A DNA stretch of 64,000 nucleotides from Octopus sinensis (taxonomy: Eukaryota), in contig NC_043018.1 of assembly GCF_006345805.1 (NCBI RefSeq), forward strand, positions 2,914,001 through 2,978,000. The letters run 5' to 3'. Shown here piece by piece: positions 4,076 to 61,692 of the stretch. Below the pieces are notes generated by a model, which saw only the letters and a program-made list of their open reading frames with translations, did not search any database and was not told the origin of the DNA. Every line of letters begins with the position of its first letter. Position 1 is the stretch's first letter. Both the position numbers and the translations under genes were made by a program.

Positions 4076-4223
4076 TCATAGAAAATTGTTCCTCGAAATT
4101 CATAGCAAATGATATAAGCCAACAGCAAAACAAGACGCTCAGGTCTTAGCGTTAAATAGTTCAAGGCCTTTTACGGAATTTGATAATCACATTGCATTCT
4201 CTCCTGAGATTGGTTTGCATGAA

Positions 4224-4454
4224 AGCGGCGAACTGGCAGAAACGTTAGCACGCTGGGTGAAATGCATAGCCGTATTTCGTCTATCTTTACGTTCTGAGTT
4301 CAAATTCCGCCGAGGTCGACTTTGCCTTTCATCCTTTCGGGGTCGAGAAATAAAGTACCAGTTACGTACTGGGGTCGATATAATCGACTTAATCCGTTTG
4401 TCTGTCCTTATTTGTCCTCTCTGTGTTTAGCTCCTTGTGGGTAGTAAAGAAATA
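4224..4454 (+). mobile_element. SINE family B, full length with TSD
   Basis: GCGGCGAACTGGCAGAAACGTTAGC...GAGTTCAAATTCC...GGTCGACTTTGCCTTTCATCC core; flanked by the 12-bp direct repeat GGTTTGCATGAA (4212-4223 and 4455-4466). Confidence 0.95.
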
Positions 4455-28154: not shown

Positions 28155-28735
28155 AGACGGTGACTGGCGGAATCGTTAGCACACCGGGCGAAATGCTTAG
28201 TAGTATTTCGTCTGCCGTTACGTTCTGAGTTCAAATTCCGCCGAGGTCCACTTTGCCTTCCATCCTTTCGTGGTCGATTAAATAAGTACCAGTTACGCAC
28301 TGGGGTCGATGTAATCGACTTAATCCGTTTGTCTGTCCTTGTTTGTCCCTTCTGTGTTTAGCCCCTTGTGGGTAGTAAAGAAATAAGTATTTCGTCTGCC
28401 GTTACGTTCTGAGTTCAAATTCCGCCGAGGTCCACTTTGCCTTTCATCCTTTCGTGGTCGATTAAATAAGTACAAGTTACGCACTGGGGTCGATGTAATC
28501 GACTTAATCCGTTTGTCTGTCCTTGTTTGTCCCTTCTGTGTTTAGCCCCTTGTGTGTAGTAAAGAAATAAGTATTTCGTCTGCCGTTACGTTCTGAGTTC
28601 AAATTCCGTCGAGGTCGACTTTGCCTTTCATCATTTGGAGAACGATAAATTACGTACCAGCTGTGTACTGGGATCGATTTAATCGGCTGGCCCCTCTCCA
28701 AAATATTCGGGCCTTCTACCGAGAGTAGAAAAGAA
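28155..28735 (+). mobile_element. Head-to-tail trimer of SINE family B
   Basis: GTATTTCGTCTGCCGTTACGTTCTGAGTTCAAATTCCG recurs at 28203, 28387 and 28571 (period 184); only the first unit has the 5' head; the third has a different tail. Confidence 0.93.
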
Positions 28736-41824: not shown

Positions 41825-43150
41825 ATGAATAGCAGGCAGGGTCAGGCATGGGAAGAATTTTTGATGAACAAAGTTCTACTGTCTGAAGTAAACAAAAATG
41901 AACATCTTAGATGCCTTGGGATCGTATGGCTTGATTATAGGAGAGCATTGAACTCTATTCCCTACTCATGGCTGTTGATGTATCTACCTTTAGCCAAAGT
42001 GCCAGCCACCTTAGCTGCTGCCATTGAGAGACTCATAATGAATTAGGCAATACTTCTCATACTTACAATTGAGAGTGAAACGATTGACGCATAATATAGA
42101 TTTCAAAAAGAATAATTGAACAAGATATTATTTCTGTAATTCTATTCATTTTGCCATTAAATCCATTATCATTCCTGCTCCAAAAATTGAAGTGTTTGAA
42201 CACCAAGAGATAACAATGTAACCTATTATTTCTTGGTGGATGACTCAAGTTGTTTGTGTTTTCCTTGGCTACTAATGGTGAACATGCCAAAAGCTGACGA
42301 AATTAATAACAACATTTTCCGGTGACATAGGAATGGTATTTGCGAGCTGACAGAAACGTTAGCACGCCGGGCGAAATGCTTAGCGGTATTTCGTCTGCGT
42401 TACGTTGTGAGTTCAAATTCTGCCGAGGTCGACTTTGCCTTTCATCCTTTCGGGGTCGATAAATTAAGTGCCAGTTACGCACTGGGTTCGATGTAATCGA
42501 CTTAATACCTATGTCTGTCCTTGTTTGTCCCCTCTGTGTTTAGCCCCTTGTGGGTAATAAAGAAATAGGTACTTGGCTATAAGAAACGTTCGTATTTGTT
42601 TGATGGACTTAGAAAATCTGTGCCTCAAAGCCAAACCCTACGCGCCAATGGCCTCATTGTCTTTCCTCCACTGCACCAAGAATACTACAAATACCTAGGC
42701 ATTGACGAAAGCATATCACACCAATGTGACTGGACAATATTCTACCAGACTTAGGAAAGTATGGTAGTCAGGACTCTACTCTTACACCGTTAGATCTCCA
42801 CAGTGCATTTGCAGTACCAGTGCTGATTTCAATACTTGGGATACCTGAAATTTCGGTAGAGGTAATCCACTCTGTAGACATTAAAAGCCGCAAGATCCGA
42901 GCATCGACTAAAATCTTCCGCAGAAACAATGATATTGACTGCCTCTAACCAAGGAAGACCTGCAGGCAGTAGAGGTTCCAGATCAGTGTAGACAGTCTTC
43001 GAATGTCGTAGAGTCTCAGACAGTAGTTGCTAAACAGCAGCGTCCAAAGTAAATACATAAACTTAGTGCTGGAAAGGAAAAAAAAGACAACGTCCTACGT
43101 GTCGGCAGGGAGCAAAATAGGAAGCACTCTCTTCATAATGGCCTCCAATA
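41825..43150 (+). mobile_element. R4/Dong-like non-LTR retrotransposon RT relic
   Basis: WLDYRRALNSIPYSWLL..L.LAKVP; FSGDIGMV[SINE]LGYKK; YYKYLGIDE; RLRKVW*SGL; AFAVPVL; DIKSRK...DIDCL; interrupted by a SINE. Confidence 0.87.
42343..42567 (+). mobile_element. SINE family B nested in the LINE RT
   Basis: Family core intact; imperfect duplication GGTATTTG / GGTACTTG at the junctions. Confidence 0.93.
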
Positions 43151-48017: not shown

Positions 48018-48446
48018 TTTGTATGTATACTGCATGAGTGGGTTTATCGTATGCGTGTACAATTATTTGAATACGAGTTCTTTGTCATAATCTCATCGCC
48101 ACTGATGGGGCCAAACCAAGTTGAGACCTGAGTATTTTGAATAGTTTCCTGTGATTTTTTTGATTTATACATACATACATTCATGCATGAATGTGTGACC
48201 GGTTGTTCGTTTCATCAATTAAGTGAACCAACAAACATGATTTTCATATTTTGTATCTCGTTTACGGAATAAAAACAGTGTTGATGTTTCCCGCGTGAAT
48301 GATGTGGGAATGCACAAACACACAGGACATGTAGCACAAACACACACTCGCGTAAATACAGCACGCACTCACACACACATAGCACACACACAAACGTATA
48401 CAGACATATAAACACATACAAATACACACACACACAAAACACAAAT

Positions 48447-48875
48447 AGGCGCAGGAGTGTCTGTGTGGTAAGTAGCTTGTTTACCAACCACATGGTTTCG
48501 GGTTCAGTCCCACTGCGTGGCACCTTGGGCAAGTGTCTTCTACTATAGCCTCGGGCCGACCAAATCCTTGTGAGTGGATTTGGTAGACGGAGACTGAAAG
48601 AAGCCCGTCGTATATATGTATACATATATATGTGTGTGTGTTCGTGTGTGTTTGTGTGTCTGTGTTTGTCCCCCTAGCATTGCTTGACAACCAATGCTGG
48701 TGTGTTTATGTCCCCGTCTTTTAGCGGTTCGGCAAAAGCGACCGATAGAATAAGTACTGGGCTTACAAAGAATAAGTCCTGGGTTCGAGTTGCTCGATTA
48801 AAGGCGGTGCTACAGCATGGCCGCAGTCAAATGACTGAAACAAGTAAAAGAGTAAAAGTGAGAGTAAAGAGTAAA
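48447..48875 (+). mobile_element. SINE family A, full length
   Basis: AGGCGCAGGAGTG..TGTGTGGTAAG through to the GAGTAAA tail; closely matches the reverse complement of 676-1094. Confidence 0.94.
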
Positions 48876-50545: not shown

Positions 50546-51348
50546 CATGATGACGATGGAGATTTCGTTGATAAAGGTGATAATGGTAATGGTGGTACTG
50601 CTGCTTGTAGTAGTAGTTGTTGTTAAGCAACAAGACGGGTAAGGGTGATTAGGTGATGGTCTAGGGCTTAGGGGCAGGAGACCCCAGACCTTGGAAAAAA
50701 AAACATTGGTCGTCTTGTTGATTGCTCTTCGTAGACGCCCGCACCATTGGGAGGTGGCCCTCGAAGTCGCTGGAAATAGAGATCTCCAGGTCTAAATTCT
50801 TGAACGGCTGCTGCTTGTAGAGATGTTGCTGGTTGCATTGGTGGTAGTGGTGCCACCACTGTCGACGATGACCCTAATGGCCACAACAACGCTCAAGAAA
50901 TTGTTTCCGCTTTGTGACACACTGCACCATAAACAATGGTTTAGATTTTGCCCTCAGTCCAGCAATTCCGCGGAATGGTAGTCAACTGGTACTCACTTTA
51001 TCTACATCAAAAAAATAAAATGCAAAATTTACCTCGGCGGAATTTGAACATTATCGATAGTGAAATGCCGCAAAGCAGTTTTTCGTGTGTGCCAGCTCGG
51101 TGCCTAACAGGAGCAACATAAATAGTACAAGAAAAACCAAAATTCCACTCCACTCAGGGTTGTAGGAGGAAAATGTTCGATCCTTAACACATTACTGATT
51201 AGAACCTTTAACACCACAGAGAAAAGAAATTCATAGACACTTGCATTAGATAAATGTCCCAAAGCAACACTGAAGAGAAGTTTGAGAACATCTACGGTGT
51301 GTAAGATAAAGTGAAAACGATAAGAGAAGTAGACTGAACGGAGATATA

Positions 51349-51583
51349 TGTTTCTTTATTATCCACAAGGGGCTAAACATAGAGGGGGCAAACAAGGATA
51401 GACAAACAAATTAAGTCGATTTCATCGACCCCAGTGCGTAGCTGGTACTTAATTTATCGACCTCGAAAGGATGAAAGGCAAAGTCGACCTCGGCGGAATT
51501 TGAACTCACAACTTAATGGCAGACGAAATACTGCTACGCATTTCGCCCGGCGTGCTAACGGTTCTGCCAGCTCGCCGCCTTCA
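51349..51583 (-). mobile_element. SINE family B, full length with TSD
   Basis: Flanked by the 13-bp direct repeat GAACGGAGATATA (51336-51348 and 51584-51596). Confidence 0.95.
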
Positions 51584-52272: not shown

Positions 52273-52443
52273 ATATATGTATGTATGTATATAAGCAATA
52301 GATATCCATAATTTTATGACTGTACCGTAATTGTTTCCGTCATTAGCCTACCGTCTTACTGAGCCACAGCGTTGACAGGTTTCATCATATGAAACAATCC
52401 CAGATCTTATGTTTCTGTGTGATGAAGAGCCTTTATATAAATT

Positions 52444-52570
52444 ACTAGTCGAAGTGGTTCCCCATCTTGATTGTTGTTTTCGCTACGTTTCGGCTGTGTA
52501 CGCCACAGCCTTTTCAGGTACTTTTCGATTCACTATAGTGCCTTGCCCAAGATTGAACTCAAAACCTCCC
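52444..52570 (-). ncRNA. Hammerhead-like repeat copy with upstream B-box-like motif (core 52481-52518)
   Basis: Minus strand GAGTTCAATC...CCTGAAAA-GGCTGTG-gcgta-CACAGCC-GAAAC-GTA...AACAATCAAGATG; perfect 7-bp stem II; first core box deviates from CTGAnGA. Confidence 0.65.
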
Positions 52571-52858
52571 GTTGATATCTTATGTGATCTCTCTATAGAT
52601 TGGATAAATATAACTCAAAATATTTCTGAGATTACATCCGAGTGCCGCCCTCATCTTGATTACTTTTTGGTTGCGTATGTTCCAGTCTATTTTGGGAAAC
52701 TTGTAATTTACTTTAATACTTTGTGTATTCCAATCAGTTGGAAGCCGACATAATATATAAATGTGGCTTTATACACCTTAAATGTCACTCTCACACCATC
52801 GACATACATAGCGTTGAAGATAGACAAAGAGTTTGTAATGCTGTGCCGTCACCTAGCG

Positions 52859-52983
52859 ATTCTGTGCGCAATCCGGAACAAAGCGCTAAGGTGAACCACA
52901 AGACACCTGAAGAGGGTGGGGGCATACACAACCGAAACGTAGGGAAAGCAACAATCAAGATGAGGACATAACTCCGACTGATA
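52859..52983 (+). ncRNA. Hammerhead-like repeat copy (core 52906-52944)
   Basis: CCTGAAGA-G-GGTGGGG-gcata-CACAACC-GAAAC-GTA...AACAATCAAGATGAGGACA; core boxes intact, stem II has mismatches; homologous to 52444-52570 in the opposite orientation. Confidence 0.65.
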
Positions 52984-54506
52984 CTTGTAGTATTTTTGTT
53001 TTTAATATCGAACTCCTTTTCACTAAATGCTACATAAATGACGTAAGCAAGTCTTGTCCTCATACAAATACACATGGGTGTACTTATTTTTGTGTATGTT
53101 GAGTGTAAATATGTTTATATGTGAGTTTCTATATGTGTTTAAGGGATTCTGCACACTTTCTCTTTAGCAAATATTTTTAATACGTCACTGCTGGGACCGA
53201 GTCTGCAACAAAGCGACAGATAGTAGGCCTGGCCGACAAAATATTCTGAAGCAAGTAATCCCCTAAATTACATGGGCAATTTAGAGTGATTTTTGTTTAG
53301 TTGTTTTAGGGGAATTTTTTTGCAACTATCGTTTCTTATTGTTACGATTAACCATGTAGAGGGCGGGATTTGATGACCTCTTCAGATTTTGAAACATAAA
53401 GTATTGCTGATCGTTCTAACGATGATTGCCCTTCGATTGCCTTACGTGAGGGTCCTTTGAGTTTCGAGTCAAATTCCAAACATCTTTGTATTCACAAATG
53501 ATTCCTTTCAACAACACATTTGAAATAAAAAGACACATCCGTAGTTTGGTTACACATTGCATCGTAAATAGGACGAGGTTGTCCAAAATGCGGTGATGCC
53601 AGATCTCACCGCTTTACTACACACGGTGAATTAGCCAACCAAGAGAATTACCAGTGACATGTTGGATCACGAATACGTATGTGATTATGTTCGTGATGGT
53701 CTAGATTCACTGTTTGGTGCGGCTTCAAATCCTGCAGGATGATCAACAGTGTATTGCAAATAAGCAAGTTCTTAAAGCTGTATAACTTCTTTTTTTATAT
53801 TGAAGCACAGGAAACATATGAGTCTGGGGTTAACCCAGTTAACAGTTTATTTATAAAATGGCAATGTCTACGATTCAAACTCGTGAGGTGTACACTAATT
53901 TCTGTGTGGTAGAGTAAATATTTGGGGCAGCTGGTAACTCAACTTGTTGAGCACCATTGATATCACTAAATAAGAATTCTAGATTCCTGAAATATCCTCA
54001 AGTGTTCAAACTGAGAAAACTGAAGTAGCACGTCCAAAGATGGCGTTCCTAATCATTTAAAGCAAAAACGAACAAAAGGATGGAGTAAAAATAATATTAT
54101 GAAATATTATCATTATCACCACATGAATCAGCACCTGACTGATAGGAAACATACGAAGCATGCAGTGTGAGTATAAGAGAATATCTCAGGTACAACGACC
54201 AAACATCGTGCATCAAGTGCGAAATAATGAATGGTGTAAGCGGGAACATGGTCAATAATACTTCAAGCTATAATTTCAGAACTCATTAATTTTAAGCGGA
54301 GACGAGCGGCTGATTTGAAGGCAGTTAAGCGAATGTCGGATGAGAATGAATAATTAATTAAACCTTAATTGCTCCAAATTTATTTCGTCCTCAGAATTTC
54401 CTGAATAAATCGGTAGAATAGAATCTTTTTGTGTCTAATTCTCCTTACACAAGCACAGTGACATACACTCAGCTATCCATCCGGATATATATAGATATAT
54501 GTGCAT

Positions 54507-60979: not shown

Positions 60980-61031
60980 TCGAACTCCGAATCTTAGGGT
61001 TAGTAGCCCGCGCTCTTAACCACTACGTCAT
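60980..61031 (-). mobile_element. tRNA-like head fragment
   Basis: Minus strand ATGACGTAGTGGTTAAGAGCGCGGGCTACTAACCCTAAGATTCGGAGTTCGA (A and B boxes); homologous to 61241-61290. Confidence 0.7.
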
Positions 61032-61240
61032 TTTAAAATCTTCCCCCTGTGGGATGTTGTTAAAATAATAGACAGAACGGCAGTGGAACATACGAAAACT
61101 AAAAGAAGCAGCACATATGCTAGGACACAACAACCTCCTAAGCAGATCGAGTGCAGATACGAGTAGCTATTGGAACAGGTATTAAGGCTAGGAAAATATT
61201 AGATTTATAAACCTTAAAATTCACTCCTTAATTGCCCACG

Positions 61241-61300
61241 GGGATATGGCGTAGTGGTTAAGAGCGCTGGATATTAATCCCAAGATCCCTATAATAATAG

Positions 61301-61389
<89 letters not shown>

Positions 61390-61692
61390 GCTGCTCATGT
61401 ATTTTAATTTAACTTAAAAAAAAAAAAAATGAACGAACTATTGAGTTTGGTTTAATGGCCTACCAATGTATACTATGAGTTTCTTCGCCCTAGGAGTCGG
61501 GAAGACACTCGGCAAGAAATGGAAGCAAATTTGAAAGGAGAAAAAAAAGTAATAAAAATGATAATAATAATAACATAGAAAAATACCTTAGGAATGGAAA
61601 CCCAGATGAAGCCTGGAGGGTATTTGAGCCGAAACGTTGTGTTAACAACAAACAAGATGAGGACAAATATCCGTCAAATGTAAACAATGTAT
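61241..61692 (+). mobile_element. Composite: tRNA-like head + (TAC)/(TAA)n + hammerhead-like tail (61601-61640)
   Basis: TGGCGTAGTGGTTAAGAGCGC head; tail CCAGATGAAG.CTG...GCC-GAAAC-GTT...AACAAACAAGATGAGGACA resembles the 52.5/52.9-kb copies. That head and tail belong to one element is inference. Confidence 0.5.

Follow-up and report, generated by a model that had tools for sequence, protein, structure and literature searches.

A back-to-back hammerhead pair in Octopus sinensis is a Penelope-like derivative, from a lineage whose pLTR carries a tRNA-derived segment and likely Pol III promoter

What kind of element leaves two hammerhead-bearing copies pointing away from each other in an octopus genome? 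In the window (the whole 64,000-nt stretch of DNA analysed), an earlier note recognised such a pair and proposed a ribozyme-carrying candidate SINE family. The homology and divergent orientation of the two units are borne out: their local alignment scores 114, where the best of 300 shuffles reaches 36, and blastn aligns them at 77% over 101 nt (E 3e-15). The description as units of ~125 bp with ~290 bp between them was wrong, as the intervening ~290 nt are element and there is no spacer. The whole of ~52403-52983 belongs to a single composite insertion, whose source is a non-autonomous Penelope-like element (PLE) of 307 nt, here called F1. Mapping to the F1 monomer gives the architecture: a minus-strand partial tandem, joined head-to-head at ~52722 with a whole plus-strand F1 monomer. 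The pair is composed of decayed pieces of this short, protein-less offshoot of a Penelope-type element:

52403-52442 (left end approximate), minus strand: decayed PLE tail extension of the minus copy, from the F1 monomer alignment
52443-52575, minus strand: F1 3' part with B box, minimal hammerhead and tail start; 81% to the family majority
52484-52517, minus strand: hammerhead core of the minus copy, stem II perfect, G8 lost, predicted inactive
52484-52491, minus strand: GAAACGTA of the minus copy
52511-52517, minus strand: core CTGAAAA of the minus copy
52551-52560, minus strand: B-box-like motif of the minus copy; its A box is gone through internal deletion
52562-52632, minus strand: tail of the preceding tandem unit and Penelope ORF-start remnant; 77%
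52637-52723, minus strand: third hammerhead unit, belonging to the partial tandem and heavily decayed; 66%
about 52721-52723: head-to-head junction between the third hammerhead unit and the plus copy
52721-52983, plus strand: whole F1 monomer, with ORF-start remnant, deletion junction, UTR, tRNA-like segment and hammerhead; 77%
52809-52874, plus strand: decayed A box (52809) and B box (52864) of the plus copy
52907-52941, plus strand: hammerhead of the plus copy, core letters intact, stems broken, predicted inactive (motif starts 52907 and 52934)
52984-53050, plus strand: possible decayed tail extension of the plus copy, from a weak alignment

The inverted layout, correctly taken as typical of Penelope, is an ordinary Penelope 5' inversion (PMC8557442, PMC4209133). 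PLEs regularly have inverted 5' copies (PMC8557442), and opposite-strand minimal hammerheads 100-700 bp apart had already been noted in Schistosoma (PMC4209133). A search of the 2.72-Gb genome gave at least 43 F1 matches, a lower bound because only 40 of 420 candidates were scored. Arrangement was counted in 58 distinct F1-related loci (68 fetched, 10 duplicates removed). Divergent inverted pieces occur in 29 of the 58 and convergent ones in a single locus, making back-to-back pairs the normal insertion form of F1; tandem pieces occur in 30/58. The arrays are short and decayed. Pieces of at least 100 nt (n=93) differ from the monomer by 13.7% on average, and the window copies are 19-23% off the majority. 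The 3' ends of copies cluster near 245-260, 270-280 and 305-310, which fits an optional PLE tail of 30-40 nt. F1-like fragments also lie within longer contigs of four presumed-RNA runs; ends, strand and level are unreadable from such contigs. The inverted pair itself is ordinary: a Penelope inversion of a non-autonomous derivative, and no SINE.

Both window hammerheads are broken and predicted inactive. Their defects are complementary, as first described: the minus copy has a perfect stem II and lacks G8; in the plus copy the core is intact, and the stems fail to form. A complete minimal hammerhead was expected in the consensus, and the family majority does fold into stems I and II of one. The complementary defects might suggest that the host keeps the pair, for use as a promoter in both directions or as a ribozyme in two parts, each copy filling the gap of the other. 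This is exceedingly improbable, given that the copies lie on opposite strands, exceed the family mean in divergence (19-23% against 13.7%) and have decayed boxes, and that intact hammerheads are rare family-wide. Core and both stems are intact in 1/24 F1 copies and in 0/29 and 9/46 copies of the related families F3 and F2, respectively. CpG decay has reached the F1 majority itself, changing G12; stem II does not differ between families, and copies decay neutrally. Rfam returned no family at gathering score in the window, and neither a hammerhead nor a tRNA at E up to 5-10 in 16 loci and a 281-nt stretch.

The origin of F1 can be read from F3, a longer form of the F1 UTR. A putative endonuclease end precedes the F1-type UTR in 8/9 F3 loci, and at locus L265 the F1 "start" continues into ORF sequence; F1 therefore derives from F3 by loss of the ORF and ~110 nt of UTR. 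The junction of this ORF deletion is crossed by 36 of the 58 F1 loci. What F1 keeps are the boxes, the hammerhead, the tail and the first ORF codons; the ORF and ATG region are lost. The product is a non-coding tandem monomer with a type I hammerhead, within the size range of non-LTR retrozymes (150-450 nt). Penelope ancestry of F1 via F3 is well supported, and we regard it as very probable.

The SINE proposal stands in part. F1 is non-autonomous and Penelope-dependent and has a minimal hammerhead and tRNA-like A/B boxes; it is not a SINE with its own head, and it retains a remnant of the Penelope ORF start. The boxes that the earlier note suggested seeking are present in the F1 family majority and decayed in the window copies, and the F1 3' end is a PLE tail. 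The unit is a pLTR in structure, which the earlier note had named as grounds against its own reading, though no annotation of the element was found. The head was not independently acquired: it lies inside the pLTR/3' UTR of autonomous Penelope elements (27/30 F2 and 8/9 F3 loci). A tRNA-derived SINE was considered and rejected: the tRNA-like segment is internal to F1 and also occurs in F2/F3, so the head is not 5'-terminal; the window flanks (one old locus examined) show no target-site duplication; and the 3' end is a PLE tail, not a simple repeat. A more specific version has a SINE with its own tRNA head borrow a hammerhead tail from Penelope. Read from the head, the monomer does run head, body, hammerhead tail, like the promoter-plus-hammerhead tandem repeats described in Schistosoma (PMC6765202). 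We consider this origin very improbable, as the head is already present in the autonomous parent, F1 retains ORF-start codons and upstream UTR, F1 forms tandems (30/58) and inversions (29/58), and the window flanks share no direct repeat of at least 6 nt. It is largely refuted already by the F3 ORF-end/UTR junctions. Other abundant SINE-like repeats, 84-92% alike, lie in the window at 687-1096, 4220-4452, 28164-28577, 42400-42565, 48445-48858 and 51341-51583.

Another hammerhead copy in the window, at 61601, had been grouped with the pair. It belongs to the sister family, F2, which is younger than F1/F3, and here the ORF end is found upstream in the window:

60980-61031, minus strand: part of the F2 tRNA-like segment in inverted orientation, from a 5' inversion of the F2 insertion
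61042-61210, plus strand: end of the F2 ORF, broken, coding for the C-terminal region (putative endonuclease); stop at ~61208-61210
61240-61289, plus strand: A-box half of the F2 tRNA-like segment, remainder deleted
61550-61691, plus strand: F2 ATG region, hammerhead with broken core, and tail

The F2 and F3 families represent the autonomous parents. The F2 majority is a single open frame of 778 codons, and the parent ORF includes a reverse transcriptase (RT) domain (PF00078, E 3.5e-10). The C-terminal 214 aa of the F2 ORF lack a Pfam match and contain a YSIPCSC..YKGET motif with conserved C/H residues, which may mark a GIY-YIG endonuclease; this region is 23-32% identical to GIY-YIG PLE ORFs of the same genome. 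A CxxC linker between RT and endonuclease is present in a control family, and none was seen in F2. The parents share one order: ORF stop; tRNA-like segment; in-frame ATG; hammerhead; tail; and remaining ORF. In both F2 and F3 the ATG precedes the hammerhead, and no stop interrupts the frame across hammerhead and tail. Among 30 F2 ORF-end loci, the tRNA-like segment comes next in 27 and a hammerhead or tail follows in 23. The two families are ~80% identical near the ORF end; they are sisters, so they do not count as independent. A search for further F3 RT copies returned mainly F2 copies, and F2 still has copies ~96% identical to its majority. Homologs P0001-P0017 are 50-67% identical. One of them, P0010 (52% identical and from another source), carries a hammerhead/tail-like peptide in frame at its N terminus, and the overlap of ribozyme and ORF start is therefore old in the lineage. 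Metagenome relatives are 28-35% identical, with one short match at 45%, and pattern search of these found no hammerhead. No relatives were found in the viral contigs searched, and a PDB search gave no match.

The segment shortly after the stop codon of F2 and F3 is tRNA-like, with A and B boxes. All three families have both boxes, at a spacing of 32 or 42 nt, and the boxes are kept in F2 and in F1/F3 although the inter-box stretch differs by 10 nt. Compared with 33 host tRNA sequences of seven amino-acid types, the closest is tRNA-Arg(TCT), with z of 7.0 for F1 and 8.7 for F2. A profile built from 42 host tRNAs gives 17.6 bits for F2, 10.9 for F1 and 8.0 for F3; the shuffle maximum is 8.4 (n=300). 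The same profile gives 2.1 bits for the minus copy of the window, no match for the plus copy and no match in five control UTRs. ARAGORN called no tRNA in 11 element loci; its silence and that of Rfam fit boxes retained without the tRNA fold. The best 30 matches to the F2 segment lie in Penelope context in 24 cases. In the other six (among loci L365-L393), the match runs into (AAT)n, without any other Penelope part; such matches may represent truncated copies or a mini-SINE derived from the pLTR.

If this segment acts as a Pol III promoter, T4 terminators should be missing from the unit that it transcribes. The F2 ORF has no run of four or more T (T4) in 2358 nt, against 28 such A runs. Null expectations are 2.7 and 3.1 (P 0.037 and 0.025), by itself a modest result and one among several T measures tried. 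TTT occurs 12 times against 19.7 expected (P 0.008), and five windows with T at four of five positions are found where 14.3 are expected (P 0.0095); depletion of windows with five of six is not significant in this ORF. In real copies, T4 frequency rises from 0.13 per kb at ≥94% identity to 0.49 at <90%. F3 copies have none in 3112 aligned nt, partly overlapping, and the F1, F2 and F3 UTRs also have none. Together, the tRNA-like segment and the lack of T4 runs in the parents suggest that these are likely Pol III-transcribed.

Other PLEs of the same genome behave differently from F2. All 15 loci of other GIY-YIG PLEs (~four families) have T4 runs, and A/B motifs were shown in none of these control PLEs. 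Control ORFs of 762-883 codons have 8-13 T4 runs in 8/8 cases, and a control Penelope family with the same T content as F2 (21%) has 8-9. Distant metagenome ORFs have 4-23 in 10/10; two of the ten fall under their own null, yet with 4-6 runs. Among host tRNA genes (n=53), 43 have a run of T4 or longer within 40 nt, the first run being exactly four in 20, a count that is weak because the flanks are AT-rich. Seven clustered tRNA-Cys genes, four of them at ~156-nt spacing, were seen at L167:493-3006. Separately, L353-L358 (G000) belong to a GIY-YIG PLE family that is young, possibly still active, and has several intact ORFs of 781 codons. The UTR 3' of its 781-codon ORF repeats CCAAT-like and TGACGTC motifs, presumably of Pol II type, and pattern search found no hammerhead in this family.

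The second line of evidence is where copies end. For copies that reach +3 of the tRNA-like segment, 5' ends were counted in the interval -14 to +3 around tRNA +1. This interval holds 11/15 F2 ends with a hammerhead query and 28/30 with a tRNA query, and 4/6 F3 ends; the F1 count is 1/13, thus no pile-up. In the next interval downstream, 8/23 F2 copies end. A short palindrome lies at the pile-up point in both lineages and could produce the pile-up as an inversion hotspot. This palindrome, at 61232-61246 and at the F1/F3 equivalent, spans the predicted start, and a change between F2 and F1/F3 is matched on both arms. Read by eye, many F2 copies meet unrelated DNA at the head, without the first arm of the palindrome. 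A near-perfect palindrome of ~215 nt, MITE-like, was also seen at L112:810-1026.

The known PLE promoters are Pol II promoters. It may be that the tRNA-like segment is a passenger SINE head in an ancestral pLTR, that Pol II makes the RNA, that the palindrome causes the 5' pile-up, and that T runs are lacking for another reason, such as avoidance of splice or polyadenylation signals. Known PLE promoters do sit in the pLTR (PMC6765202), the F2 segment with (AAT)n resembles a simple SINE, F1 lacks the pile-up, and the boundary palindrome is present in both lineages. We consider this explanation unlikely, if still a serious one: the same-genome control PLE family that lacks the segment is not poor in T runs; at the head, many F2 copies are joined to unrelated DNA and lack the palindrome arm; the two boxes have been kept in both lineages; and 24/30 of the best segment matches are in Penelope context, the other six running into microsatellite. 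The reading we favour, and hold to be probable from the sequence evidence, is that this lineage comprises Penelope elements driven by a captured tRNA-derived Pol III promoter. What appears new is a PLE lineage with a tRNA-derived pLTR segment, and this segment likely acts as the Pol III promoter.

If so, the replication cycle would likely involve: Pol III initiation at or just before tRNA +1 in the upstream pLTR; read-through of the T-run-free unit into the next pLTR; binding of the parent protein, with its RT and putative GIY-YIG parts, near the tail, where reverse transcription would start (cf. anole Poseidon, PMC11167929); and completion of a cDNA ending at tRNA +1, with a template switch yielding the inverted 5' copy. 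In anole Poseidon, the hammerhead overlaps the ORF start, reverse transcription begins inside the ORF start, and hammerhead cleavage requires protein (PMC11167929). F1 would move in trans, with multi-unit or circular RNA as the template, and this would account for the lack of F1 5' ends at the head. Cleavage by the hammerhead, predicted to act as a dimer, would split the ATG from the ORF. Hammerhead cleavage can permit cap-independent translation (PMC13725137), and the protein could come from an mRNA made by Pol II read-through. Counting against the Pol III reading, transcripts of this polymerase carry no cap and tend to be short (PMC10886601).

The interest of the lineage is that Pol II is the polymerase assumed for autonomous retrotransposons, with Pol III promoters taken to be limited to short non-coding elements (PMC10886601). 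If the Pol III reading holds, an ORF of ~830 codons with a ribozyme just behind its start codon would be read by Pol III, a natural example of long transcripts from this polymerase and, probably, of translation without a cap. The fuller proposition is that an autonomous, protein-coding lineage switched to a Pol III, tRNA-derived pLTR promoter and purged T runs from its 2.4-kb ORF, and that its short deletion derivatives illustrate a direct route from Penelope elements to Sm-alpha-like promoter-plus-hammerhead repeats; we would give this even chances. F1-F3 provide a traceable series from parent to retrozyme, and F2 copies ~96% identical to the majority make the Pol III idea amenable to reporter assays.

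Octopus genomes reportedly contain tRNA-derived SINEs, OK, OR1 and OR2 (attributed to Ohshima and Okada, 1994). They resemble F1/F2 as tRNA-related octopus repeats, a likeness drawn from description only. For Octopus vulgaris, 190 Penelope-like families are listed (PMC13282606). The supplement that lists them makes no mention of a hammerhead, and the library may therefore contain the F1-F3 families unlabelled. The literature searched, with most subscription papers, Repbase, Dfam and SINEBase outside its reach, does not describe F1, F2 or F3, nor any Penelope pLTR with a tRNA-like segment.

With Penelope/Poseidon PLEs (anole PAc, PMC11167929; PMC4209133), the parents share: a single ORF that encodes RT and, towards its C terminus, a putative endonuclease; a minimal type I hammerhead in a pLTR overlapping the ORF start, with an optional tail; and partial tandems with opposite-strand hammerheads 100-700 bp apart. 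F2 and F3 differ from these elements, as described in the accessible parts of the sources, in the A/B boxes of the pLTR, the T-run-free ORF and the 5' ends at tRNA +1. F1 resembles animal non-LTR retrozymes, which are non-coding 150-450 nt tandems with type I hammerheads (PMC7229834; bioRxiv 10.64898/2026.07.22.740005) and have been proposed to derive from PLE pLTRs (bioRxiv 10.64898/2026.07.22.740005). The main text of the latter does not mention tRNA, Pol III, promoter or octopus. Unlike the retrozymes described there, F1 has short, decayed arrays and a traceable parent and deletions.

In layout, F1 also resembles Schistosoma Sm-alpha, in which a Pol III-type promoter is followed by a hammerhead in tandems, the upstream unit transcribing the next (PMC6765202, PMC8490949). 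Compared by description only, Sm-alpha differs from F1 in that the accessible parts of these sources give no coding parent with the same promoter. TRIMp3 elements (Cassandra, Helenus and Ajax; PMC10886601) similarly place small-RNA-derived promoter boxes in a terminal repeat, with no functional tRNA. The autonomous partners of Pol III TRIMs, it has been argued, must use Pol II (PMC10886601). TRIMp3 elements are of LTR type and non-autonomous (PMC10886601), whereas here it is the autonomous elements that carry the boxes.
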